The notes under the pieces are model-generated. The model was not told the origin of the DNA and did not search any database. It worked only from the letters and a program-made list of their open reading frames with translations. Below are positions 3,674 to 42,313 of a DNA stretch of 64,000 nucleotides, piece by piece (positions within the stretch are counted from its first letter, which is position 1; each line of letters begins with the position of its first letter). The DNA comes from Escherichia coli. GTDB lineage: Bacteria; Pseudomonadota; Gammaproteobacteria; Enterobacterales; Enterobacteriaceae. Position numbers and translations under genes: made by a program. Where the stretch lies: NCBI RefSeq assembly GCF_041886205.1, contig NZ_CP169031.1; one strand, 5' to 3'.

Positions 3674-5401
3674 TTGTGTTTAAGGAAGAGTAAATTGAGT
3701 AACTTACGCGAATACCAGAATCGTATTGCAGATATCGCAAAACGCTCTAAAGCTGTGCTTGGCTGGGCAAGCACTGCGCAGTTCGGTACTGATAACCAAT
3801 TCATTAAAGATGATGCCGCGCGTGCCGCATCTATCCTTGAAGCTGCACGTAAAGACCCGGTTTTTGCGGGTATCTCTGATAATGCCACCGCTCAAATCGC
3901 TACAGCGTGGGCAAGTGCACTGGCTGACTACGCCGCAGCACATAAATCTATGCCGCGTCCGGAAATTCTGGCCTCCTGCCACCAGACGCTGGAAAACTGC
4001 CTGATTGAGTCCACCCGCAATAGCATGGATGCCACTAATAAAGCGATGCTGGAATCCGTCGCAGCAGAGATGATGAGCGTTTCTGACGGTGTTATGCGTC
4101 TGCCTTTATTCCTCGCGATGATCCTGCCTGTTCAGTTGGGGGCCGCTACCGCTGATGCGTGTACCTTCATTCCGGTTACGCGTGACCAGTCAGACATCTA
4201 TGAAGTCTTTAACGTGGCAGGTTCCTCTTTTGGTTCTTATGCTGCTGGTGATGTTCTGGACATGCAATCCGTCGGGGTGTACAGCCAGTTACGCCGCCGC
4301 TATGTGCTGGTGGCAAGCTCCGATGGCACCAGCAAAACCGCAACCTTCAAGATGGAAGACTTCGAAGGCCAGAATGTACCAATCCGAAAAGGTCGTACTA
4401 ACATCTACGTTAACCGTATTAAGTCTGTTGTTGATAACGGTTCCGGCAGCCTACTTCACTCGTTTACTAATGCTGCTGGTGAGCAAATCACTGTTACCTG
4501 CTCTCTGAACTACAACATTGGTCAGATTGCCCTGTCGTTCTCCAAAGCGCCGGATAAAGGCACTGAGATCGCAATTGAGACGGAAATCAATATTGAAGCC
4601 GCTCCTGAGCTGATCCCGCTGATCAACCACGAAATGAAGAAATACACCCTGTTCCCAAGCCAGTTCGTTATCGCGGCTGAGCACACGGTACAGGCGGCGT
4701 ATGAAGCACAGCGTGAATTTGGTCTGGACCTGGGTTCCCTACAGTTCCGCACCCTGAAGGAATACCTGTCTCATGAACAGGATATGCTGCGTCTTCGCAT
4801 CATGATCTGGCGTACTCTTGCGACCGACACCTTTGACATCGCTCTGCCGGTTAACCAGTCCTTTGATGTATGGGCAACCATCATTCGTGGCAAATTCCAG
4901 ACTGTATATCGCGACATTATTGAGCGCGTTAAATCTTCTGGTGCGATGGGGATGTTTGCTGGTGCTGATGCAGCATCTTTCTTCAAACAGTTGCCGAAGG
5001 ATTTCTTCCAGCCAGCCGAAGACTATATCCAGACTCCGTATGTTCACTACATCGGTACCCTGTTCGGTAACGTGAAAGTGTACGAAGTACCTGCTGGTAT
5101 TTGTAAGAACTTAACGACAGAGAACATTCAGTTCAGCTCGATGGATGTGCTGTGCTACGTCCGTGATGAAAATCCGGGTAAAGCAGGCTTCGTGACTGGT
5201 GATGCTGTCCCGGCTATCCCGTTCCAGCATCCGACCACTCCGGCGCTGGTCAACCGTACCACACTGTGGGGTTCGGCTATCAACGATATGCACCCACGCA
5301 ACGGCGCTGATTACTTCACTCGTGTAACGCTGACAATGGCCAAAAAAGGCGGGCTTAACTTCATTAGCGGCGACACGATTGATGCCGGTGACTCTGAGTA
5401 A
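3674..5401 (+). CDS. Putative major head protein precursor (P1 gene 23-like)
   Basis: 575-aa ORF, first gene after parS and preceded by a late-promoter-like element. The track start is TTG; an in-frame TTG at 3695 has a better RBS (aaggaag). Confidence 0.5.
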   Translation: MCLRKSKLSNLREYQNRIADIAKRSKAVLGWASTAQFGTDNQFIKDDAARAASILEAARKDPVFAGISDNATAQIATAWASALADYAAAHKSMPRPEILASCHQTLENCLIESTRNSMDATNKAMLESVAAEMMSVSDGVMRLPLFLAMILPVQLGAATADACTFIPVTRDQSDIYEVFNVAGSSFGSYAAGDVLDMQSVGVYSQLRRRYVLVASSDGTSKTATFKMEDFEGQNVPIRKGRTNIYVNRIKSVVDNGSGSLLHSFTNAAGEQITVTCSLNYNIGQIALSFSKAPDKGTEIAIETEINIEAAPELIPLINHEMKKYTLFPSQFVIAAEHTVQAAYEAQREFGLDLGSLQFRTLKEYLSHEQDMLRLRIMIWRTLATDTFDIALPVNQSFDVWATIIRGKFQTVYRDIIERVKSSGAMGMFAGADAASFFKQLPKDFFQPAEDYIQTPYVHYIGTLFGNVKVYEVPAGICKNLTTENIQFSSMDVLCYVRDENPGKAGFVTGDAVPAIPFQHPTTPALVNRTTLWGSAINDMHPRNGADYFTRVTLTMAKKGGLNFISGDTIDAGDSE

Positions 5402-14852: not shown

Positions 14853-14899
14853 AGTTACGGCCTCGTAAGTTGATAAACAACCTGCGACCCGCTGCTAAA

Positions 14900-14990
14900 C
14901 AGGTGGCAGGACGTGACGGGGTTAGCAGACTGGCACTTACGAAACCAGCAGGCCGAAGCCTCCCCATCACGCCCCACCATAATTCGGGCG
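14900..14990 (-). ncRNA. c4: c4-like antisense repressor RNA (approximate bounds)
   Basis: Between a C1 operator-like site (15165) and icd. The transcript would contain cugcuaaccc (14912-14921), complementary to two gguuuagcag target copies, one at 14888-14897 near the icd RBS and one at 15060-15069. Confidence 0.45.
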
Positions 14991-15164
14991 TAACGTGGTT
15001 TACGGACACAAAAATACCGCAATATCGGAAATCTGCGGTTGTCCGCGTAAGTATTCAGGCTGCTAAACCCGGTCGCAGAATTTGCTACGACGGCGGAACT
15101 ATAAGCCTGAACGATTAAAAGGTCAATATGATGCGAAAAGATAGCATTCGCGACTTAAAAATAC

Positions 15165-31620: not shown

Positions 31621-31646
31621 TTCTCTTAAACCAAGGTTTAGGATTG
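31621..31646. promoter_or_regulatory. cixR recombination site for Cin
   Basis: ttctcttaaaccaaggtttaggattg, inverted partner of cixL; overlaps the cin 3' end. Confidence 0.6.
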
Positions 31647-32198
31647 AAATGACGACGCCGGAAACTTCTTATAAAGCGTGGAAACAGCCACATCATAGAT
31701 GATTGCAACCTGCTTACGGGGGATGCCATTCTCCAGCAATCGCCGCATTTGCTGCCATGTTTCTTCTTGGTATTTAGGCCGACGTCCACCTATACGACCT
31801 TCTGCGCGAGCTGCATCAAGTCCAGCGCGTGTACGTTCAACGATAAGCTCACGTTCCATTTCTGCCAGCGCTCCCATTACGTGAAAGAAAAAGCGCCCCA
31901 TTGGTGTACTGGTGTCGATAGAGTCAGTGAGACTCCGGAAATTAATTCCTCTGTCACGCAGCTCTTCCACCAGCACAACCAAGTGACGCATGCTGCGCCC
32001 AAGACGATCTAACTTCCATACGACCAGGGTGTCACCTCTGGAAAGCATACGCAAAACCTTTTTTAGCCCAGGGCGTTCAGTCTGTTTGCCGCTCGCCTTA
32101 TCCTCAAAAATTAGCTCACATCCTGCGCTTTCAAGGGCATTTCGTTGCAAAGCAGTGTTTTGTTCATTTGTTGATACGCGTACATAGCCGATCAGCAT
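31638..32198 (-). CDS. cin: Cin DNA invertase (serine recombinase)
   Basis: 186 aa from MLIGYVRVSTNEQ (serine recombinase active-site motif); the track ORF extends further upstream but has no RBS there. Confidence 0.85.
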   Translation of the reverse strand: MLIGYVRVSTNEQNTALQRNALESAGCELIFEDKASGKQTERPGLKKVLRMLSRGDTLVVWKLDRLGRSMRHLVVLVEELRDRGINFRSLTDSIDTSTPMGRFFFHVMGALAEMERELIVERTRAGLDAARAEGRIGGRRPKYQEETWQQMRRLLENGIPRKQVAIIYDVAVSTLYKKFPASSFQS

Positions 32199-32261
32199 GA
32201 TTTTTACTCTAACCGGCTCATTTAAACCGTCTGGTCTGTTTCCTCCGGCTCTACAAAAATA

Positions 32262-32939
32262 ATGTCCATCATTTTTAATGGACACTATCGTATGAAACAC
32301 CGGACCTGGATCACTGAAGCTTTACGTCTTCACTTTGAAGAACATTTACCCCGGGTTGTGGCCGGGCGTCGCCTGGGTGTACCAAAATCAACAGTTTGTA
32401 GTATGTTCGTGCGCTTTCGGAGAGCTGGCCTTTCGTGGCCTTTGCCCGCAGGCATGTCGGAGCAGGAACTTGATGCCTGCCTTTACGGACAATTTTCCAC
32501 GGTACCAGTCGTACGTCCTGAAAGCACCGTTATATCCGAAGCCCCCGTGGTAAAAAAACGTCCCCGGCGGCCCAACTTCCCTTATGAGTTTAAAATCGCC
32601 TTAGTGGAGCAGTCACTGCAGCCCGGAGCCTGTGTGGCGCAGATCGCCCGGGAAAACGGAATCAACGATAACCTGCTCTTCAACTGGCGCCATCAATACC
32701 GGAAAGGTGGCCTGCTGCCTTCCGGAAAAAATATGCCGGCACTGCTTCCCGTGACGTTAACGCCGGAGCCGGATAATAAAATCCCGGCCCCCGCACAGGA
32801 ACCAGAGCAGATAAATACACCGTCCGACAGTCTGTGTTGTGAGCTGGTTCTGCCGGCCGGAACTCTCAGGCTTAAAGGTAAACTGACGCCGGCGTTATTA
32901 CAGACACTTATCCGCGAAATAAAAGGGAGCAGCCACTGA
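32262..32939 (+). CDS. IS66-family accessory protein (orf1/TnpA-like) with N-terminal HTH extension
   Basis: C-terminal part (RRPNFPYEFKIALVEQSLQPGACVAQIARENGINDNLLFNWRHQYRKG) is IS66 orf1-like; the ~95 aa N-terminal part carries an HTH-like segment (GRRLGVPKSTV). Confidence 0.55.
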   Translation: MSIIFNGHYRMKHRTWITEALRLHFEEHLPRVVAGRRLGVPKSTVCSMFVRFRRAGLSWPLPAGMSEQELDACLYGQFSTVPVVRPESTVISEAPVVKKRPRRPNFPYEFKIALVEQSLQPGACVAQIARENGINDNLLFNWRHQYRKGGLLPSGKNMPALLPVTLTPEPDNKIPAPAQEPEQINTPSDSLCCELVLPAGTLRLKGKLTPALLQTLIREIKGSSH

Positions 32940-33286
32940 TGATATCTCTCCCTGCAGGTTCGCGTATCTGGCTGGTTGCAGGTATCACCGATATGCGAAA
33001 TGGCTTTAACGGCCTGGCATCAAAAGTTCAGAACGTCCTGAAGGATGACCCGTTCTCCGGACACCTGTTCATCTTCCGCGGACGCCGGGGTGACCAGATA
33101 AAAGTGTTGTGGGCTGACAGTGACGGACTGTGCCTCTTCACCAAACGCCTGGAGCGGGGCCGCTTCGTCTGGCCAGTCACCCGTGACGGCAAGGTGCACC
33201 TTACTCCGGCTCAGTTATCCATGCTTCTTGAAGGTATCAACTGGAAGCACCCGAAACGAACGGAACGCGCTGGAATCCGCATATAA
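32939..33286 (+). CDS. tnpB: IS66-family TnpB (orf2)
   Basis: 115 aa; start overlaps the orf1 stop (atga), typical of IS66. Confidence 0.75.
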   Translation: MISLPAGSRIWLVAGITDMRNGFNGLASKVQNVLKDDPFSGHLFIFRGRRGDQIKVLWADSDGLCLFTKRLERGRFVWPVTRDGKVHLTPAQLSMLLEGINWKHPKRTERAGIRI

Positions 33287-33305
33287 CCCGTTGTAAAGTG
33301 AGGAT

Positions 33306-34877
33306 ATGGACACCTCACTTGCTCATGAGAACGCCCGCCTGCGGGCACTGTTGCAGACGCAACAGGACACCATCCGCCAGATGGCTGAATACAACCGCCT
33401 GCTCTCACAGCGGGTGGCGGCTTATGCTTCCGAAATCAACCGGCTGAAGGCGCTGGTTGCGAAACTGCAACGTATGCAGTTCGGTAAAAGCTCAGAAAAA
33501 CTTCGTGCAAAAACCGAACGGCAGATACAGGAAGCACAGGAGCGAATCAGCGCACTTCAGGAAGAAATGGCGGAAACGCTGGGTGAGCAATATGACCCGG
33601 TACTGCCATCCGCCCTGCGCCAGTCTTCAGCCCGTAAACCGTTACCGGCCTCACTTCCCCGTGAAACCCGGGTTATCCGGCCGGAAGAGGAATGCTGTCC
33701 TGCCTGTGGTGGTGAACTCAGTTCTCTGGGATGTGATGTGTCAGAGCAACTGGAGCTTATCAGCAGCGCCTTTAAGGTTATCGAAACACAACGTCCGAAA
33801 CAGGCCTGTTGCCGGTGCGACCATATCGTGCAGGCACCAGTACCTTCAAAACCCATTGCACGCAGTTATGCCGGAGCGGGGCTTCTGGCCCATGTTGTCA
33901 CCGGGAAATATGCAGACCATCTGCCGTTATACCGCCAGTCAGAAATATACCGTCGTCAGGGAGTGGAGCTGAGCCGTGCCACACTGGGGCGCTGGACAGG
34001 TGCTGTTGCTGAACTGCTGGAGCCGCTGTATGACGTCCTGCGCCAGTATGTGCTGATGCCCGGTAAAGTCCATGCTGATGATATCCCCGTCCCGGTCCAG
34101 GAGCCGGGCAGCGGTAAAACCCGGACAGCCCGGCTGTGGGTCTACGTCCGTGATGACCGTAACGCCGGTTCACAGATGCCCCCGGCGGTCTGGTTCGCGT
34201 ACAGTCCGGACCGGAAAGGTATCCATCCACAAAATCACCTGGCCGGTTACAGCGGTGTGCTTCAGGCCGATGCTTACGGTGGTTACCGGGCGTTATACGA
34301 ATCCGGCAGAATAACGGAAGCCGCGTGTATGGCTCATGCCCGGAGAAAAATCCACGATGTGCATGCAAGAGCGTCCACCTACATCACCACGGAAGCCCTG
34401 CAGCGTATCGGTGAACTGTATGCCATCGAGGCAGAGGTCCGGGGCTGTTCAGCAGAACAGCGTCTGGCGGCAAGAAAAGCCAGAGCCGCGCCACTGATGC
34501 AGTCACTGTATGACTGGATACAGCAACAGATGAAAACACTGTCGCGTCACTCAGATACGGCAAAAGCGTTCGCATACCTGCTGAAACAGTGGGATGCACT
34601 GAACGTGTACTGCAGTAATGGCTGGGTGGAAATCGACAACAACATCGCAGAGAACGCCTTACGGGGAGTGGCCGTAGGCCGGAAAAACTGGATGTTCGCG
34701 GGTTCCGACAGCGGTGGTGAACATGCGGCGGTGTTGTACTCGCTGATCGGCACATGCCGTCTGAACAATGTGGAGCCAGAAAAGTGGCTGCGTTACGTCA
34801 TTGAACATATCCAGGACTGGCCGGCAAACCGGGTACGCGATCTGTTGCCCTGGAAAGTTGATCTGAGCTCTCAGTAA
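33306..34877 (+). CDS. IS66-family transposase (orf3)
   Basis: 523 aa with coiled-coil N-terminus and Cys-rich zinc-binding motif (CPACGG...CCRCDH), typical of IS66 transposases. Confidence 0.8.
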
Positions 34878-35025
34878 ATATCAATACGGTTCTGACGAGT
34901 CGCTTACTTTTACTCTAATGCGTTGTTCTTATGAGTCTGCGAATTTTAAAGAACAAAGCGTTATGCACAGAAATAACAATCTGAATAGGTTCCTGCTTGA
35001 TTTTTGTTAGATCCGGGAGGAGCTT

Positions 35026-35310
35026 ATGCAGATTTTGATTTTTTTAATGTCCATTATTAGTGGAACCTATTTATTTCTTACTGGAGTTAGGCGTGGAGCT
35101 TATAAGCCATGTTTTTTACATTGGCTTGAAGCATGGCTGCTTGCCATAAAAGGTGGTTTTGTTGGTTTTTGTCTTGCAGAAGTTCAGTGGGGAAACTCAT
35201 TTTTGGATGTGGTTGCTTTTTTGATATGTAGTTGGAATAGCCATTTTGTATTAAGAATAACCAAAATATGGGTTTTTCACTTGATTTACGAATGTATTGG
35301 CAAATTATGA
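35026..35310 (+). CDS. Small hydrophobic membrane protein (possible holin-like)
   Basis: 94 aa with 2-3 predicted TM segments; strong RBS (gggaggag); just upstream of lydA. Confidence 0.35.
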   Translation: MQILIFLMSIISGTYLFLTGVRRGAYKPCFLHWLEAWLLAIKGGFVGFCLAEVQWGNSFLDVVAFLICSWNSHFVLRITKIWVFHLIYECIGKL

Positions 35311-35370
35311 ACAACCAGATGAGAAGTTACTTTGCATACCATTACCTCCTGACAACGTAGGAGGGAACTT

Positions 35371-35700
35371 GTGCTTGACACACAGGAATTAGCTCCAGTT
35401 GCTATTGCGCTCCTGCTTTCAGTAATTGGTGGGATAGGCACGTTCCTGATGGATGTCCGAGACGGTCGCCAGTCTGGCAATTTGTTGGGATTGGTTACGG
35501 AGATCTTTGTTGCAGTGACAGCTGGCGCGGTGGCGTACCTATTGGGGCAACACGAGGGCTGGGAGTTATCAATTACGTACTTAATGGTAACGATAGCCAG
35601 CAATAACGGTCATGAGGTGATTTCAGGGATGAAACGAGTGAATATCGATAGCATTCTGAATGTTCTTACAAGTTTGGTGAAAAAGGGAGGCGGGAAATGA
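35371..35700 (+). CDS. lydA: Holin LydA
   Basis: 109 aa with two TM segments and a charged C-terminus; first gene of the lyd-dar operon. Confidence 0.7.
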   Translation: MLDTQELAPVAIALLLSVIGGIGTFLMDVRDGRQSGNLLGLVTEIFVAVTAGAVAYLLGQHEGWELSITYLMVTIASNNGHEVISGMKRVNIDSILNVLTSLVKKGGGK

Positions 35701-36140
35701 TTGGCTGGGGTGTATGCGTTCTTGCGTTAGCCTTAGCCGATCGCTATTTGCTAAAACGCAAGGACATCACGCATTTAGAACTTGGTGATGTGGAAATTAA
35801 ACCGGGTTTCATCCGGGTGCCGTTCAAATACCGGTCTAAATTCCCGTTTTTGCGCGGCGCAACGGTCAGATATTGGATCCGCGATGTTCAGAAGCCAACG
35901 ACAGTGATTGAAGGCGAACAACGTTGTCTGACGTCGGCTGAACAGGGCGAAAACAGTGAATGGTTGTACATACCCACTGAATATATGGGTAAAGGAGAAC
36001 GGCTGTGGCATTTCAACGTCATGGTTACGCATGGCGACTCGTTCATTAACCCGTTGTATCGGATTTTCCCTGTTACTCAGCAAATCCGCAGAAGTTACGT
36101 AATAAATCTCGCACAGGATGTGTCAGATGACGAAAAATAA
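35697..36140 (+). CDS. lydB: Antiholin LydB
   Basis: 147 aa, overlapping the lydA stop. Confidence 0.6.
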   Translation: MIGWGVCVLALALADRYLLKRKDITHLELGDVEIKPGFIRVPFKYRSKFPFLRGATVRYWIRDVQKPTTVIEGEQRCLTSAEQGENSEWLYIPTEYMGKGERLWHFNVMVTHGDSFINPLYRIFPVTQQIRRSYVINLAQDVSDDEK

Positions 36141-36729
36141 GTATGCAACGGTCGATTTTGACCAGGTTAATGAAAAGGGGCTGAAATCCCTTATCGCGGC
36201 GATCAATAAAACCGGTGTTACGGTAATTGAGGTTGACTCCAGCAACCGCGCAACAACGAAAGATGGCGTTAAAGTTAAAACCGCAAAGCTGGTTCTTAAC
36301 GACGGACAAATTCTTGCCATACAGGTAAACGATACTGGCGATATATCGTCTGTGAGGCTGAATGGAAAAGCTATTCCTAACGCTCAGTCGCCGGATATCA
36401 AGACGCTTGGTACCGTCATGGGGCAAGCGGCCCGCAAAAACTCCGCAAAATTCCAGAAATCACTGATCGCCAAAGCGAAACGTGTTGCCAATCCGGTAGA
36501 CAAGAAACCGGCAGTAAAATCCAACTTTCAGCGCCTGCAAGAGGCAAAACAGCGGAATGCTCAGGTGGTTGCCGCTTATAAATCAGCGCAGAACTCGGTG
36601 TCTTTCAATCAACAGCAGATCACTGATTTGCGGGCGAAGCTGGATAAGGAGACAGGCCGACTCAATAACGAAAAGGCCCGAAATGGCGAACTCAAACGCC
36701 GTCTTAAGCAACTGAAAGCAGGAAATTAA
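36118..36729 (+). CDS. hdf: Hdf, homologue of a DarA fragment
   Basis: 203 aa; an internal segment (...ARKNSAKFQKS...) parallels the DarA segment (...AEKNSAKFQRA...). Confidence 0.6.
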   Translation: MCQMTKNKYATVDFDQVNEKGLKSLIAAINKTGVTVIEVDSSNRATTKDGVKVKTAKLVLNDGQILAIQVNDTGDISSVRLNGKAIPNAQSPDIKTLGTVMGQAARKNSAKFQKSLIAKAKRVANPVDKKPAVKSNFQRLQEAKQRNAQVVAAYKSAQNSVSFNQQQITDLRAKLDKETGRLNNEKARNGELKRRLKQLKAGN

Positions 36730-36730
36730 C

Positions 36731-38650
36731 ATGGAACAGTTCAATATCAATAAAGGGGTGACGATCAAACCTGGGCTTGACGTGCTTCCCCCGCCAGTGA
36801 CTGATGATGAATATCGCGCATTAATGGCCGGTGAGGACCGCTATCTGATGACGGAATCCAACACCCTGGAGGAAATCGAGGCTACGTTCTTCTATGACAC
36901 GCCGATCCACTGGTGTGCTACGGATTTACTGGAGGCGATTAGTTCTACTCGTTTGCAGCTACACCGGACCATGCAGGCATTTGTCCGGGCATTGAACCAG
37001 AAGCTGAATGGTACCGGAATCTCTGCGGGGAGTGATAAAACGGGGGATGTGGCCCAGAACGGTGCACGCGCGATCGGCGGGGCTGAAATTGGCCGGGCAC
37101 GTAACGTTAACGGGCTGCCGGTCCTGCCAGCCATTATTCCGCTCAGTGATGGTCAGACTATCAGCATTCTGTTTCATAGCCCGACAGCGGAAAACCGGAT
37201 CACCAATAGCGATACGCTGATTGCTTTCCAGTTCTTACTGAATAAAAAAGACGTTACTCATACCGTTGCTCCGATGAGTGGACGTGATATGACGCTGGCG
37301 CAGGTCACCATGAAACTTGCCAACCTTGCAGAGAAAAACTCGGCAAAATTCCAGCGTGCGCAGAAGAAGAAAAAAGCCCTGGTTGATGAAATAACCCAAC
37401 TACAGGCTGACAGTGACCAGAAAGAGGATGCCATGAGCGACCTCGCGGATCAGGTGGCAGCGGTAGAAGGGCAGAAGGTAGATCTGGAGCAGAAAATTAA
37501 CGCTGTTGCATCGGAAGCGGATTCTCTTTATGAAGAGAATGAGCGTTTGCAGACGGAGATTGATCAGCTCAATCGAACTGGTGGGCGCGAAACCATTGCT
37601 CCTGCGGGGATGACTGGTGGACACTCTCGCGCGATGACGGATCGCCTTGCAAGTATCAAAAATCGTATGCATATGAACGGGGAAGTGACGCTCAGTAATG
37701 GTGCATCAATGAAGCAATTCATTGAGGACGGTGAAGGGTATATCCAGTTAACCGATTCGGATGGCAGCGTGTACATGATCAAGGCTAAATCCATACAGGG
37801 TGTGGACATGGCAGATGCGATCGGCAAGCTGTTTAAAGCCTATAAAGCGGGTAATGTATCGGAATACCTGGTCCAACCAGAAGAACATAAACCGGAAAAC
37901 GTCGAACCTGAACCAGCGGAGGATACCGGTAGCTCTTCGCCTGAACCAGAAATCTCTGTAGGTGCATATCGATATGCCCTGCAAATGCGTCCGGCGGCCC
38001 CTGGCGCAATACCTGAAGGTAACAAAGCAATTCTGCCGCGCCCTGATGAAGGTGACCCGTATTATGAATATGCACGCTACGGCATTGCTACTTACGATAC
38101 CCCGCTTTCTGATCAGCAAATGAGTGAGTACGACCTGAAGTTATTGCCTCGCGAGGATTCTTTCGACTTCTTGGCGAAGACACTTACTAATGGTCCGTTT
38201 GGCAAATATGCACAAAAAGCTCTGGAGCTGGCCACCAGCTCACCAGACGAGTTCCGCGTAATGCTGAAAACTCAGTTTCAAAAAACTTTCCCCAATATTG
38301 CGTTTCCGGGGGGCGCTGGCACCGAGAAAATGGTGCAGAGCATGATCAATGCATTGCAGGCCGAAGTCGGTGAGATTACTCAGCCAGAACCTGCCCCGGC
38401 ACAGCCTGATGAAACGGTTAGCGAAGCAGATGCAGAGGCTAATAAAGCCATTGAATATCTCAATAACGTGATGGATATGCAAAGCACTGACATGGCGGAG
38501 ATCCGTAACGCCCGGGGTAATGTCCGGGAAGCGATTGCAGCCCTTCAGGCTGCCGGGCGTTTTGAGGAAAACGAAGAGCTGGTTAATGGCGCTGCTCGCC
38601 ACTTGGCTGATCTGCTGGTAGCAATCCAGAAAGCGGGGGTAGCGGCATGA
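36731..38650 (+). CDS. darA: DarA antirestriction head protein
   Basis: 639-aa ORF in the lydAB-hdf-darA arrangement; acidic, coiled-coil-rich. Confidence 0.7.
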   Translation: MEQFNINKGVTIKPGLDVLPPPVTDDEYRALMAGEDRYLMTESNTLEEIEATFFYDTPIHWCATDLLEAISSTRLQLHRTMQAFVRALNQKLNGTGISAGSDKTGDVAQNGARAIGGAEIGRARNVNGLPVLPAIIPLSDGQTISILFHSPTAENRITNSDTLIAFQFLLNKKDVTHTVAPMSGRDMTLAQVTMKLANLAEKNSAKFQRAQKKKKALVDEITQLQADSDQKEDAMSDLADQVAAVEGQKVDLEQKINAVASEADSLYEENERLQTEIDQLNRTGGRETIAPAGMTGGHSRAMTDRLASIKNRMHMNGEVTLSNGASMKQFIEDGEGYIQLTDSDGSVYMIKAKSIQGVDMADAIGKLFKAYKAGNVSEYLVQPEEHKPENVEPEPAEDTGSSSPEPEISVGAYRYALQMRPAAPGAIPEGNKAILPRPDEGDPYYEYARYGIATYDTPLSDQQMSEYDLKLLPREDSFDFLAKTLTNGPFGKYAQKALELATSSPDEFRVMLKTQFQKTFPNIAFPGGAGTEKMVQSMINALQAEVGEITQPEPAPAQPDETVSEADAEANKAIEYLNNVMDMQSTDMAEIRNARGNVREAIAALQAAGRFEENEELVNGAARHLADLLVAIQKAGVAA

Positions 38651-39012
38651 CACTATCAGCTATTGAGTTAATGGATCTCAGCGATAAGTTGGATGCTTTG
38701 ATGTCCAAAGCGGCTACCGCGAGTGGCATGGAGTTGCTGGATATCAGCGATGAAATTGACCAGATCATGCAACAGATGGGGTACGGTGTGTCCGGCGGCA
38801 GTAGTGGCGAGGAAAAACAACCTTCGGTACATGATGGTGTGCCAAAACTGGTTGCTGATTTCCTGGCTGATAAATTCGTCGATCAGAGCACCGATGCATT
38901 TATCGGTACCTTGCAGGATTTGAGTCAATATGTTGGCACATACATCGACCTGGACCAGGTTAAACAGCACACGGCGGCATGGATAGCCGCCAACATTAAA
39001 GAGGCAGCATAA
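38647..39012 (+). CDS. ddrA: DdrA-like small protein of the dar operon
   Basis: 121-aa acidic ORF overlapping the darA stop. Confidence 0.5.
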   Translation: MTLSAIELMDLSDKLDALMSKAATASGMELLDISDEIDQIMQQMGYGVSGGSSGEEKQPSVHDGVPKLVADFLADKFVDQSTDAFIGTLQDLSQYVGTYIDLDQVKQHTAAWIAANIKEAA

Positions 39013-39024
39013 GGCGTAACAGGG

Positions 39025-42012
39025 ATGAGCTTAAGCGATCAGGTGGTAATGGCCACCAGCATAGAAACGCTGATCGAGCTGCTAAAGAACCTGCCCGGTT
39101 ATGGGCGGGTTTCGTATGTGGTGACAGCGAAGGGAGACGAGGTAAAAACAGCGTTTGATATCGTCGATGCCTCAGCTCTTTTGGTATCCAATACTCTGGA
39201 TGGGAAAATTAATCCTGACTATCCCCAGGAACTTCAGCCGCGCGACCGGACCCGCGCATCCAGCCTTCTTCAGGTTAACCAGATATCCAAAGATTTGCGG
39301 CCTGCTCAGCTTACTGATTCCGGTTTATCCAGCCATGGTGCGCCGATAATTGGTGAGGACAATGCCGTTGAGTCAGGTAATGGACGGACCATGGGGATCA
39401 TCAAAGCCTATCAGGACGGCAATGCGGATCGGTATCGTGAGTACCTGATTGATCATGCGACCGAATTCGGCATACGACCTGAAAAGGTTGAATCAATGAC
39501 GGCTCCGGTACTGGTGCGCCGCCGGTTAACCAAGGTTGACCGCGTTCAGTTTGCCAAGGACTCAAATATTTCTGATCTTCAGGAAATGGCAGCCAGTGAA
39601 AAGGCTTTTGTTGATGCCGACAGCATAACACCGGCGATGATGGCGCTTTTTAACCCGTCAGAAAGCGGAGATCTGCTTAGCCGCAGTAATGACGCGTTTA
39701 TTCGCGGATTTATGACGCAAGTTGGTGCCACACAGGCGGCTGGCCTTGTAACTGAAGATGGGCGACCAACACGGCAACTTGTAGACCGTATACAAAACGC
39801 GATCTTTGCCAAGGCATATAAGGATGCGCGCCTGGTAAGGATGGTTGCAGAAGAACCTGATCCGGACATGCGTAATGTTCTGACGGCGCTTAATGCGGCA
39901 GCCAATGATTTTGTCCAGATGCAGGCTTTATCAGGAGAAGCGCACAAGCAGGCTGTGACAACTATTGTTGATGGCATTGAGACAGCGGATAGCCTCGATA
40001 AAAAGGCGCTGGCGGCATTGAAAGATGCGGTAGACCTGGTAAGGCAATCGAAGGAGTCAGGCCAGCATATTACCGATGTTATTGCTCAGGGGGATATGTT
40101 CAGCGAAACGGCCCCGGAAGTGAAAGCACTCGCGTTGTTCATCGTCGCGAATAACCGTAGCGCGAAGCGTATGGCCTCCGCCTTTAAGTTGATGGCTCAA
40201 CGTATCAATGATGAGTTACAGCACCAGGGCCAGGCGCTGGGGGATATGTTTGGCGGTGGTGATGTGTCGTTACAGGATATCCTTCGCCAGGTGTCTCAGG
40301 AACTGGAAAACGAAGGCATGCAAGGGATATCCGGCGGTCTTTTCGAGTCCGTTTCCGGCGGTAGTTACAATGGTGTTGCTCCATATACCAGTTTGCTATT
40401 ACATCGGGCATCCGGCATCAAAGACATTATTCATCTGATCAGGCTGCTTTCCCGTACAGATCCCCAGGATGAACAGCTTGTACAAGTGCTTGCGCATTTT
40501 GTTCGAATGCCTGTTGCCGACGTGAAAAAATGGTGCCGATTATTCGGTATCAGCAATTCGTTACTTCGCGGCTTGTTAAATCACGCATCCTCCCTTGGGC
40601 GCGATGGCTTTGACGAGATAGCGCAGGCGATAAAAAACGGAGATATGCCACCAGCTATTGACTGGTTTTCCATTCGCCCAACCAGGGTGAAAGCATTCCT
40701 TAGCGCGGCGCATTCGGCATCACCATTGGCAGAAATGGTTCAGAGGTTGTCGCTCATATTCACAGACCATACCGCGTTGGGTGATTTGACTCTGGACGAG
40801 ATGAAAGAAGCCTCCATTCAGTGGGCCGATCAACAAAATGAGGTTAACTCTGACTTCTTGCCAGCATTCAGGAAGGCCGTTAGTAAAGCTGATGATGCCC
40901 GTGGAATTCTGAGGGCATTTAAGGCATTGCAAAGTCAGGTTAATAAACATGTCGGTGATATCGATGGGGTAACGGCGGAAGGCAGGGATATCCTTAAAGA
41001 GCACGGCATAACGCCAGAGTTTATTGATGAGATCAGGACTGATATGCAGCGTGAGGTCGTATCGTCCCTGCAAATCGTAGCCAGAGCGTTGGCGGATGCT
41101 AATCCGAAGAGTGCGGCCATTGTTAACCGTGTTATTGGTGATATTGAAGCATCGGAGGGCATGGGGGCGCTGAAACTCTTCCTTTCGCGAGCGTTTAATC
41201 CTAACGGCAATATTCTCCCCGGCATTATTGGTGAGGCTAAAAAGTATGTCAGCGAAGAAGAACTTGAGCATCTTGACCAACTACTTAAGCGATTCTCATA
41301 TAACCCGCAGACACGCTGGCAAATGAATCAGCAAAGTATGGGTTCGGTCCACGAGAAAGTGTTATCTGCCATGAACAGTGCGATCGCCAACTCATCCGTA
41401 TCTGAAGAAAAAGCTCTTGAGTGGGCCGACTCTTTTATCACGGAAGAAGTGGAAGAAGCCCGCGCTGGACAGAATGGTGGGATAGACCTGCGCAAGGAAC
41501 TTGCTGATATTTATCGCCTGACCGGCGGTAAAATTTCGACCTTATCAAAGGTGGTTCACCACCAGGGAAGGGCATATGCAAATATTAATGGTGTTGTTGC
41601 TGTCAATTTGAACGATGAAAATGCAAGTGCACTGTGGCACGAGCTGGGTCATCATCTTGAGTACAGTAACCCTGGTTTGTTAGAGAAAGCCCGGTCATTC
41701 CTGAAGGCCAATGTTGAAGGGGATAAGCCATCTTTCGTTAATATCGGTGGGCGTGGCAAGCCTGAATGGTGCTTCAGATCTCGATTGAGTAATATTTATA
41801 TGGCGAAGGTATACCCGCCAGCCTCAGTAAGTAACACCGGGAAAATTCGGCAGAAATCACCGACTATTTCCAAAACGTCAGCAACGGAAGTATTCTCTAT
41901 GGCTCTTCAGTTGTATCATGACAAAGAGGCCGCTGCCGCATCACTGATGAATGGTGACGGATTGCTGGAACTGTTATTAGGTGTGGCAAAGGAGCTAAAT
42001 AATGCAGATTAA
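39025..42012 (+). CDS. ddrB: DdrB-like large protein of the dar operon
   Basis: 995-aa ORF following ddrA; assigned by position and size. Confidence 0.55.
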   Translation: MSLSDQVVMATSIETLIELLKNLPGYGRVSYVVTAKGDEVKTAFDIVDASALLVSNTLDGKINPDYPQELQPRDRTRASSLLQVNQISKDLRPAQLTDSGLSSHGAPIIGEDNAVESGNGRTMGIIKAYQDGNADRYREYLIDHATEFGIRPEKVESMTAPVLVRRRLTKVDRVQFAKDSNISDLQEMAASEKAFVDADSITPAMMALFNPSESGDLLSRSNDAFIRGFMTQVGATQAAGLVTEDGRPTRQLVDRIQNAIFAKAYKDARLVRMVAEEPDPDMRNVLTALNAAANDFVQMQALSGEAHKQAVTTIVDGIETADSLDKKALAALKDAVDLVRQSKESGQHITDVIAQGDMFSETAPEVKALALFIVANNRSAKRMASAFKLMAQRINDELQHQGQALGDMFGGGDVSLQDILRQVSQELENEGMQGISGGLFESVSGGSYNGVAPYTSLLLHRASGIKDIIHLIRLLSRTDPQDEQLVQVLAHFVRMPVADVKKWCRLFGISNSLLRGLLNHASSLGRDGFDEIAQAIKNGDMPPAIDWFSIRPTRVKAFLSAAHSASPLAEMVQRLSLIFTDHTALGDLTLDEMKEASIQWADQQNEVNSDFLPAFRKAVSKADDARGILRAFKALQSQVNKHVGDIDGVTAEGRDILKEHGITPEFIDEIRTDMQREVVSSLQIVARALADANPKSAAIVNRVIGDIEASEGMGALKLFLSRAFNPNGNILPGIIGEAKKYVSEEELEHLDQLLKRFSYNPQTRWQMNQQSMGSVHEKVLSAMNSAIANSSVSEEKALEWADSFITEEVEEARAGQNGGIDLRKELADIYRLTGGKISTLSKVVHHQGRAYANINGVVAVNLNDENASALWHELGHHLEYSNPGLLEKARSFLKANVEGDKPSFVNIGGRGKPEWCFRSRLSNIYMAKVYPPASVSNTGKIRQKSPTISKTSATEVFSMALQLYHDKEAAAASLMNGDGLLELLLGVAKELNNAD

Positions 42013-42313
42013 AATCGCAGCGCCATTAGGCGGAGATGCCATTATCGAATTTGATGATAATGAAGAAGTTTCCGGGCGTTTAAGCATTATCTCCGGTGAC
42101 ATTACCGAGGACATGATCGCTGAAGCCATAGCTGGGGCAAATCCCAATAGCTATATGGGATTCGTTAACACCCTTGATGCTCCCGCAAGTGATGTTCTCC
42201 GAACGCTGCATCTTTACGCTGGCTGGTTTGTTGATTGGCCAGCAGTAGATGGTGGCGATGAGGACGACGACGACGATGATTTTGGTGATCATGTAGACCA
42301 GATCGTATATTGA
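42002..42313 (+). CDS. Small highly acidic protein, last gene of the dar operon
   Basis: 103 aa; C-terminus DGGDEDDDDDDFGDHVDQIVY; followed by a strong terminator. Confidence 0.45.
   Translation: MQIKIAAPLGGDAIIEFDDNEEVSGRLSIISGDITEDMIAEAIAGANPNSYMGFVNTLDAPASDVLRTLHLYAGWFVDWPAVDGGDEDDDDDDFGDHVDQIVY

Follow-up and report, generated by a model that had tools for sequence, protein, structure and literature searches.

The adjacent genes hdf and darA are, with little room for doubt, old paralogues within the late dar operon of a P1/P7-type phage-plasmid, Hdf corresponding to approximately residues 66-283 of DarA and the two products probably acting, as in P1, as a pair in the phage head. The name dar denotes defence against restriction. 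In the window, the 64,000-nucleotide stretch of DNA that was analysed, the operon comprises the following features.

35324..35342, plus strand: late promoter LPdar with its -22 and -10 boxes, matching the LPdar annotated in P7 and P1 base for base
35371-35700, plus strand: lydA, open reading frame whose protein is identical to P7 LydA
35697-36140, plus strand: lydB, open reading frame whose protein is identical to P7 LydB
36118..36729, plus strand: hdf (odaE in P7), open reading frame of 203 aa
36731..38650, plus strand: darA, open reading frame of 639 aa
38647-39012, plus strand: ddrA, from the open reading frame and P1 and P7 annotation
39025-42012, plus strand: ddrB, from the open reading frame and P1 and P7 annotation, with a DdrB-ParB domain (Pfam, E = 2e-39)

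The hdf and darA reading frames are as an earlier note on this DNA had described them. The dar region keeps the gene order of P7, RCS47, and P1 and shares 98-99% nucleotide identity with them (98.5% at 100% coverage for P7; 98.1% at 95% coverage for P1), which confirms it as the P1 dar operon, lydA-lydB-hdf-darA-ddrA-ddrB, with LPdar as its driver by identity to the annotated P7/P1 promoter. The earlier note had named the operon correctly, but the paralogy it invoked is a much weaker basis than this near-identity. The first 23 nt of hdf are also the last 23 of lydB, and a single base lies between the hdf stop codon and the darA start (TAA C ATG). Hdf has the same sequence as in P7 and departs from P1 Hdf at 3 of its 203 residues, DarA differs from P1 and P7 DarA by 16 and 11 substitutions over 639 aa, respectively, and the ddrA and ddrB products are 4-16 substitutions away from those of P1/P7. 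Hdf/DarA of P1 and OdaE/DarA of P7 (PDB 9UKM, 9VZ0) are the same genes in the same operon, set apart from the present ones by these few substitutions.

An alternative ATG of hdf at 36127 gives a 200-aa form, the one annotated in most databases. Hdf matches the PHROG 1620 profile, “Hdf-like antirestriction,” over its full length (E = 4.3e-80; aa 4-203 aligned to positions 2-200 of a 200-position profile), as well as the PDB chain 9ukm_H, “Hdf” (E = 1e-121); NCBIfam holds no Hdf model. DarA scores 1087.8 bits over aa 4-636 against the NCBIfam equivalog NF052326, “antirestriction phage head protein DarA,” whose curated cut-off is 350, and matches PDB 9ukm_I. The P1/P7 operon is intact in the window, and the element would thus be expected to pack a functional module for antirestriction and head size into its virions. 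One difference from P1/P7 is an ISCro1 insertion upstream, between cin and lydC and outside the LPdar-driven operon; the boundaries of this insertion sequence were set by matches to ISCro1 copies, and a search for its terminal inverted repeats turned up no clear ones.

In P1, a cryo-EM structure published in 2026 placed 55 DarA-Hdf pairs on the inner surface of the head (PDB 9UKM; PMC12810830). The pairs, located where pentons and hexons meet, contact the packaged DNA, favour large heads, are required for the packaging of the other Dar proteins, and exit the head with the DNA, shielding it from type I restriction (PMC12810830, bioRxiv 10.1101/2025.11.26.689930). The long helices of both proteins run parallel in a bundle that opposite charges hold together, residues 135-203 of Hdf having been built as its DarA-pairing alpha-helix domain, while the Hdf N-domain is without resolved density in the map (PMC12810830). 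The same study reports that the DarA leader, missing from the map, is cleaved in head maturation, and names the DarA_N domain of DarA the “hexon binding domain” (PMC12810830). At 97.5-98.5% protein identity, these functions are probably carried over from P1 to Hdf and DarA of this element.

The two proteins are organized as follows.

36154..36444, plus strand: DarA_N domain of Hdf (aa 13-109), from Pfam PF18788 (E = 1.5e-21) and an AlphaFold2 model
36430..36462, plus strand: Hdf motif ARKNSAKFQKS (aa 105-115), within the predicted helix 94-124
36523..36717, plus strand: Hdf C-terminal long helix (aa 136-200), from the AlphaFold2 model and profile alignment to the DarA helix
36731..36937, plus strand: DarA N-terminal leader (aa 1-69), with no Hdf equivalent, from the published finding and family domain starts
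36926..37342, plus strand: DarA_N domain of DarA (aa 66-204), from Pfam PF18788 (E = 3.2e-42)
37004..37060, plus strand: insertion in DarA (aa 92-110) that Hdf lacks, from the joint Hdf-DarA family alignment
37328..37360, plus strand: DarA motif AEKNSAKFQRA (aa 200-210), where the N-domain meets the long helix
37343..37579, plus strand: DarA alpha-helix domain (aa ~205-283), aligned with the Hdf helix by hhalign
37961..38146, plus strand: DarA_C domain (aa 411-472), with no Hdf counterpart, from Pfam PF18789 (E = 5.7e-17)

The similarity between Hdf and DarA is genuine and spans far more than the 11-residue motif. Both proteins cover positions 2-122 of the 122-position Pfam DarA_N profile (PF18788), with 76.9 bits for Hdf and 143.7 bits for DarA at a gathering cut-off of 27 bits; P1 Hdf and DarA are the founding members of this family. 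DarA_N corresponds to the domain that Iyer et al. [quoted passage not shown] The Hdf-like PHROG 1620 profile also matches DarA aa 166-287, and a family-versus-family hhalign comparison of 67 short and 60 long members aligned Hdf 43-202 with DarA 121-283 (probability 98.8%, E = 1.3e-16).

In the AlphaFold2 model (mean pLDDT 82.9), the DarA_N domain of Hdf has a single helix and a sheet of five strands, and ends within a further helix, aa 94-124. The fold comparison set this predicted Hdf, whose N-domain is itself unsolved, against experimental DarA: in a Foldseek search of the PDB, the solved P1 DarA chains were the only matches at E<=0.001 (9vz0_I, E = 2e-6 over 214 columns; 9ukm_I, E = 7e-6). 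Because the global rmsd is poor (31 Å, with a TM of 0.41-0.44), the modelled match speaks only for shared topology and order of elements, not for how domain and helix are placed with respect to each other. Pfam, hhalign, and Foldseek thus bear out the view that Hdf is a homologue of a DarA fragment, as in P1, and the entire Hdf is colinear with DarA aa ~66-283, N-terminal domain and long helix included. The internal segment that first drew attention, represented by the two motifs quoted correctly in the earlier note, is therefore really shared but is not short. The common stretch consists of the DarA_N domain, alpha+beta in fold and with the N-S-x-K-F motif core in its last helix, and of the long helix after it. 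The leader of ~69 aa, three domain insertions, the penton-binding domain, and a C-terminal part including DarA_C are the extras of DarA absent from Hdf.

The duplication is old, the short (Hdf-type) and long (DarA-type) forms being separate clades and occurring as paired genes in distant phages. A profile search of the family returned 887 clusters, the best 150 of which comprised 78 short and 66 long forms, and a single split of the neighbour-joining tree has 76 of the 78 short forms on one side and 66 of the 67 long forms on the other. The shared domain starts at about residue 59-70 in long-type members and at about residue 1 in short-type ones. At five divergent loci a short and a long gene are paired, directly adjacent in L003, L005, L007, and L008 and separated by one gene in L006. 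A further locus, L004 (CP029117.1), showed an apparent 48%-identical Hdf and was dropped because its assembly is riddled with frameshifts throughout. Over the shared domains, Hdf and DarA have 20-31% protein identity, such that the “internal duplication” proposed earlier holds as an old gene or domain duplication but not as a recent DNA repeat.

At the DNA level, the repeat between hdf and darA amounts to only 21 nt at the motif, AAAAACTC[C/G]GCAAAATTCCAG, found at 36436-36456 and 37334-37354 with 20 of 21 bases identical; other direct repeats, of 14-17 nt, are chance matches. This stretch might be taken as the remnant of a recent partial duplication, or as a tract converted by ongoing gene conversion, in the P1 lineage, and the near-identity of its bases would fit such an origin. 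At least 20 of 21 identical bases have a probability of 0.02 given the identical heptapeptide and the codon usage of the operon, a post-hoc figure, and the exact 7/7 peptide match was seen only in the P1/P7 lineage, the paralogues sharing 3/7 in L005 and 1/7 in L003. However, extended nucleotide similarity between hdf and darA, which a recent DNA-level duplication needs, was not found, and the flanks lack nucleotide similarity, so that there is nothing to guide homologous recombination. Against such a recent exchange also stand the low identity of the domains elsewhere, the separate clades of short and long forms, and synonymous sites that vary freely among orthologues. Furthermore, motif positions N, S/T, K, and F are kept in orthologues of both proteins ([KR]NSxKFQR across DarA orthologues; F112 invariant and N108 nearly invariant among Hdf orthologues), and only the variable positions K107, A110, and Q113 therefore need to coincide. 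Gene conversion between the two genes is unlikely, and we give a recent origin of the tract only a slim chance.

Chance or composition is a very improbable explanation; under it, two head proteins without common ancestry, both rich in lysine and glutamine and prone to coiled coils, would have come to share a short motif by accident. The pairwise E-value is only 7e-4 (BLASTP, 28/90 identical, Hdf 44-115 with DarA 122-210), DarA draws many weak coiled-coil matches in Pfam and NCBIfam, and the helical halves alone of this single Hdf/DarA pair show no significant similarity, 253 of 2000 shuffles reaching their score. Nevertheless, the pairwise protein alignment, which the earlier note had proposed as a check, is significant: the Smith-Waterman score of 83 was equalled by none of 2000 shuffles (43.1 ± 6.8 for shuffled Hdf), and the N-terminal part remaining once the motif was removed still scored 45 against 29 ± 4.8, a value reached by 15 of 2000. 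Accidental similarity is refuted by the full-length DarA_N matches far over the cut-off, the profile-profile alignment, and the predicted Hdf fold, for which the PDB yields no significant match other than solved DarA. Because coiled-coil composition can inflate profile scores, the homology of the helices is based on colinearity, profile alignment, and fold match combined. Convergence of unrelated proteins on a similar helix motif, through binding of a common partner, whether DNA or the inner face of the capsid, can be set aside just as firmly in view of a colinear match of ~200 residues with secondary-structure elements in common order and of coinciding conserved Asp, Asn-x-basic, and Phe positions, which are not a product of convergence.

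Building on the old paralogy of hdf and darA, we lean slightly towards the DarA-Hdf pair being a diverged former homodimer, in which one duplication predating P1-like phages would have produced a minimal Hdf-type and an elaborated DarA-type gene, kept as neighbours in many phages. After the duplication, the homologous helices, pairing in register, would have drifted to opposite charge, basic in Hdf and acidic in DarA, which would favour and enforce the heterodimer. The 75 aa from residue 127 of Hdf carry a net charge of +11, and the 75 aa from residue 222 of DarA a net charge of -11; this opposition is strong in P1-like pairs and weak family-wide, with averages of +0.1 for short and -5.1 for long forms. 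Likewise, the DarA-only insertion, aa 92-110, may provide a hexon contact that Hdf lacks, as by overlap it appears to coincide with the published hexon-contacting loop, aa 102-116 (PMC12810830). The words paralog and duplication are not used in the 2026 structure paper (PMC12810830), and the former-homodimer reading may for this reason be newly spelled out.

The hdf-darA paralogy itself is already known from the gene name, the Pfam domain, and the 2017 domain survey, and the pairing was seen by cryo-EM in 2026. As an ordinary and known relationship, it matters little beyond an annotation check, to which the coincidence of the DarA-only insertion with the hexon-binding loop and the opposite helix charges are small additions. 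There is also a modest evolutionary gain, the pair of short and long genes being old and widespread across the clusters, in two clades and as neighbours in distant phages. Where Hdf and DarA differ, the differences fall on features with a published structural role, namely the leader, the hexon loop, the penton domain, and the charge of the helices; mutational studies of head-size control by the pair can use this as a simple framework.

For this role, an analogy has been drawn with CpmA and CpmB of SaPI1, which redirect the capsid size of phage 80alpha (PMC12810830). Like these, DarA-Hdf may be viewed as extra internal proteins that alter head size via the scaffolding network. The likeness is one of analogy only, not of shared membership: CpmA/CpmB are unrelated proteins that give smaller heads and are removed, whereas DarA-Hdf favour the large head and remain in the virion.

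The region 35000-42100 of the window is 98.5% identical to phage P7 (100% coverage), 98.8% identical to RCS47 and 98.1% identical to P1 (95% coverage), and its gene order is that annotated in P1/P7, running from lydC through the LPdar promoter, lydA, lydB, hdf (odaE in P7), darA, ddrA (odaC) and ddrB (annotated as prt in the P7 record) to hxr. The remainder of the window is likewise P1-like, with cin and tail-fibre genes on the upstream side and, on the downstream side, darB and the genes for portal and protease. The features central to this analysis are:

35324-35342, LPdar promoter, identical to that of P1/P7
36118-36729, + strand, hdf ORF, 203 aa
36430-36462, codons of ARKNSAKFQKS, Hdf aa 105-115
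36731-38650, + strand, darA ORF, 639 aa
37328-37360, codons of AEKNSAKFQRA, DarA aa 200-210

The two ORFs lie head to tail with a single base between them (TAA C ATG), a spacing that suggests coupled translation, and the start of hdf overlaps the end of the preceding ORF (35697-36140) by 23 nt. The Hdf sequence is the same as in P7 and departs from that of P1 at 3 residues, while DarA differs from its P1 and P7 counterparts at 16 of 639 and 11 residues, respectively. Hdf matches PHROG 1620, “Hdf-like antirestriction” (E=4e-80), and DarA scores 1087.8 bits, above the cut-off of 350, with the NCBIfam equivalog “antirestriction phage head protein DarA”. Two in-frame ATGs, at 36118 and 36127 (MCQM...), are candidate starts of hdf; the protein is annotated with 203 aa in P1 and the PDB entry and with 200 aa in P7 odaE and most database orthologues.

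The earlier note had drawn on the shared peptides ARKNSAKFQKS and AEKNSAKFQRA, both of which are present, to describe Hdf as a homologue of a DarA fragment, and both the observation and its interpretation are correct. Pairwise alignment is significant: BLASTP aligns Hdf 44-115 with DarA 122-210 (28/90 identities, E=7e-4), and the Smith-Waterman score of 83 was reached by none of 2000 shuffled Hdf sequences (43.1 +/- 6.8). The N-terminal parts without the motif still score 45 against 29 +/- 4.8, a value equalled by 15 of 2000 shuffles. Additionally, both proteins cover positions 2-122 of the 122 in the Pfam DarA_N profile (PF18788), at Hdf aa 13-109 (E=1.5e-21) and DarA aa 66-204 (E=3.2e-42), and the Hdf PHROG profile also matches DarA aa 166-287. 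The similarity exceeds chance. The relationship is already known from the gene name, the DarA-N definition, the Pfam family and a published structure. In the 2004 P1 genome paper, hdf was reportedly named “homolog of DarA fragment”. DarA-N was defined from DarA and Hdf (Iyer et al. 2017), and the structure of the DarA-Hdf pair was published in January 2026 (PMC12810830).

To gather family members, 1.84 billion representative proteins were searched with a profile, giving 887 clusters at E<=0.001. In a joint alignment, Hdf aa 1-128 runs colinearly with DarA aa 56-222; G33, D62, Q64, T73, L81, N82 and F112 (Hdf numbering) are invariant, and DarA carries three insertions (aa 92-110, ~158-168 and ~183-188). 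The family signature, a conserved Asp and an Asn-x-basic motif (Iyer et al. 2017), corresponds to D62 and N82-G-K84 in Hdf and to D140 and N171-K-K173 in DarA. Profile-profile comparison with hhalign of 67 short, Hdf-type forms with 60 long, DarA-type forms pairs Hdf 43-202 with DarA 121-283 (probability 98.8%, E=1.3e-16), so that the alignment spans the entire long helix up to the final Hdf residues, with a loop of ~14 residues in Hdf only. Modelled with AlphaFold2 (mean pLDDT 82.9), Hdf begins with a helix (23-31), which is followed by five strands (within 36-81), a helix containing the motif (94-124), a loop and a last helix (136-200). The only PDB matches of this model at E<=0.001 are the solved P1 DarA chains (9vz0_I, E=2e-6, 214 columns; 9ukm_I, E=7e-6); with a poor global rmsd of 31 A, the match speaks for a common order and type of elements, but not for a common angle of the domain to the helix. 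Hdf in its entirety is the counterpart of DarA aa ~66-283, and has nothing corresponding to the DarA leader (aa 1-69), the three insertions, another domain at aa ~290-382 or the C-terminal region, where DarA_C lies (aa 411-472).

Among the best 150 of the 887 clusters, sorted by architecture, 78 are short (~200 aa, domain starting at residue ~1, median domain 120 aa) and 66 long (at least 400 aa, start at residue ~59-70, median 139 aa). Neighbour joining of these domains gives a tree in which one split sets 76 of the 78 short forms apart from 66 of the 67 long ones, and 139 of 145 members have a nearest neighbour of their own type. At five other loci, whose Hdf proteins range from 70% down to 30% identity to that of the window, the short form lies upstream of the long form, directly so at four of them and with one gene between at L006. 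The two clades and the paired genes elsewhere point to a single old duplication, after which the pair would have been co-inherited, rather than a recent P1 event. The “partial internal duplication” of the earlier note is loose wording, since all of Hdf is involved and the event is old and visible at the protein level only.

Some long members (P0068, 1494 aa; P0120, 1708 aa; P0131, 1042 aa) carry two DarA_N domains per polypeptide, such as those at aa 77-201 and 737-860; here the domain has undergone duplication inside one gene as well. At L006, which is metagenomic and distant, the short and long DarA_N genes have a gene of 146 aa between them (1246-1686), and the long one is followed by a gene with an InPase domain (3952-4827), companions that differ from those of the P1 dar operon. 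In the E. coli plasmid CP029117.1, the dar region is split into many small ORFs by what look like uncorrected frameshift errors in the assembly, which is why its Hdf seems only 48% identical.

At the DNA level, no repeat between hdf and darA was found beyond one 21-nt stretch, the KNSAKFQ codons (36436-36456 and 37334-37354), identical at 20 of 21 bases. Hdf orthologues show x-N-[ST]-x-K-F-x-x-S-L, with F112 invariant and N108 nearly so, and DarA orthologues [KR]-N-S-x-K-F-Q-R; an N-S-x-K-F core is thus conserved in each paralogue, in the helix that ends the domain, while the exact 7/7 match is special to the P1/P7 lineage. Orthologues use other codons, with free variation at synonymous sites, so the stretch is under no nucleotide-level constraint. 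Given the heptapeptide and operon codon usage, the probability of at least 20 of 21 identical bases is 0.02. A micro-conversion between the genes could have made the match, but the flanks share no bases able to guide recombination, and we hold this origin very improbable; coincidence at three variable positions probably explains the 7/7 match better.

In P1, 55 DarA-Hdf pairs line the head on its inner surface, at each of the penton-hexon junctions (9UKM, 9VZ0), pairing through alpha-helix domains that form a parallel bundle and are electrostatically complementary; the DarA N-domain uses loop aa 102-116 to bind the hexon, a further DarA domain binds the penton, and both N-domains turn a positive surface toward the DNA (PMC12810830). 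DarA aa 1-69 are unseen in the map, which fits cleavage at head maturation, and the pairs are gone after DNA ejection (PMC12810830). As cited there, loss of hdf or darA lowers large heads from ~80% to ~15% and keeps DdrA, DdrB, DarB and Ulx out of the virion, and a preprint (10.1101/2025.11.26.689930) places the pair in T=13 but not T=7 heads. Function in this element is carried over from this P1 work. Since the pairing helices are the homologous helices of two paralogues, as hhalign and the published pairing together indicate, the pair has the look of a homodimer that has diverged. In this element, the segment of 75 aa behind the domain has a net charge of +11 in Hdf and -11 in DarA; in each of the six pairs compared, the short form is more positive than the long one, and family-wide this segment averages -5.1 in long forms (88% negative) and ~0 in short forms. 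The DarA-only insertion aa 92-110 overlaps the published hexon-binding loop, and would account for the missing hexon contact of Hdf.

Elsewhere in the window, a C4 antisense RNA (14899-14984, - strand, 70.8 bits) and its a1/b1 target element (15052-15104, - strand, 56.2 bits) mark the P1 immI immunity region, and no tRNA genes were found in the whole window. A 132-aa ORF within ddrB on the opposite strand (39579-39977, - strand) agrees in position and length with iddB, a gene annotated in P1 whose function is unknown. Upstream of the dar operon, an IS66-like element 99.8-99.9% identical to plasmid ISCro1 copies separates cin from lydC:

31638-32198, - strand, cin
~32200-34911, IS66-like element
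32203-32213 and 34909-34919, TTTTACTCTAA at both flanks of the element
32262-32939, tnpA
32939-33286, tnpB
33306-34877, tnpC

The same site is uninterrupted in P7. The insertion precedes the cin start codon by a few bases and parts cin from the P1-annotated promoters, so that inversion of the tail-fibre segment may be affected, and the dar operon promoter, downstream of it, is intact. Four E. coli plasmids of 146 kb that come from pig faeces (e.g. CP057733.1) have the same IS-lydC-odaE junction.
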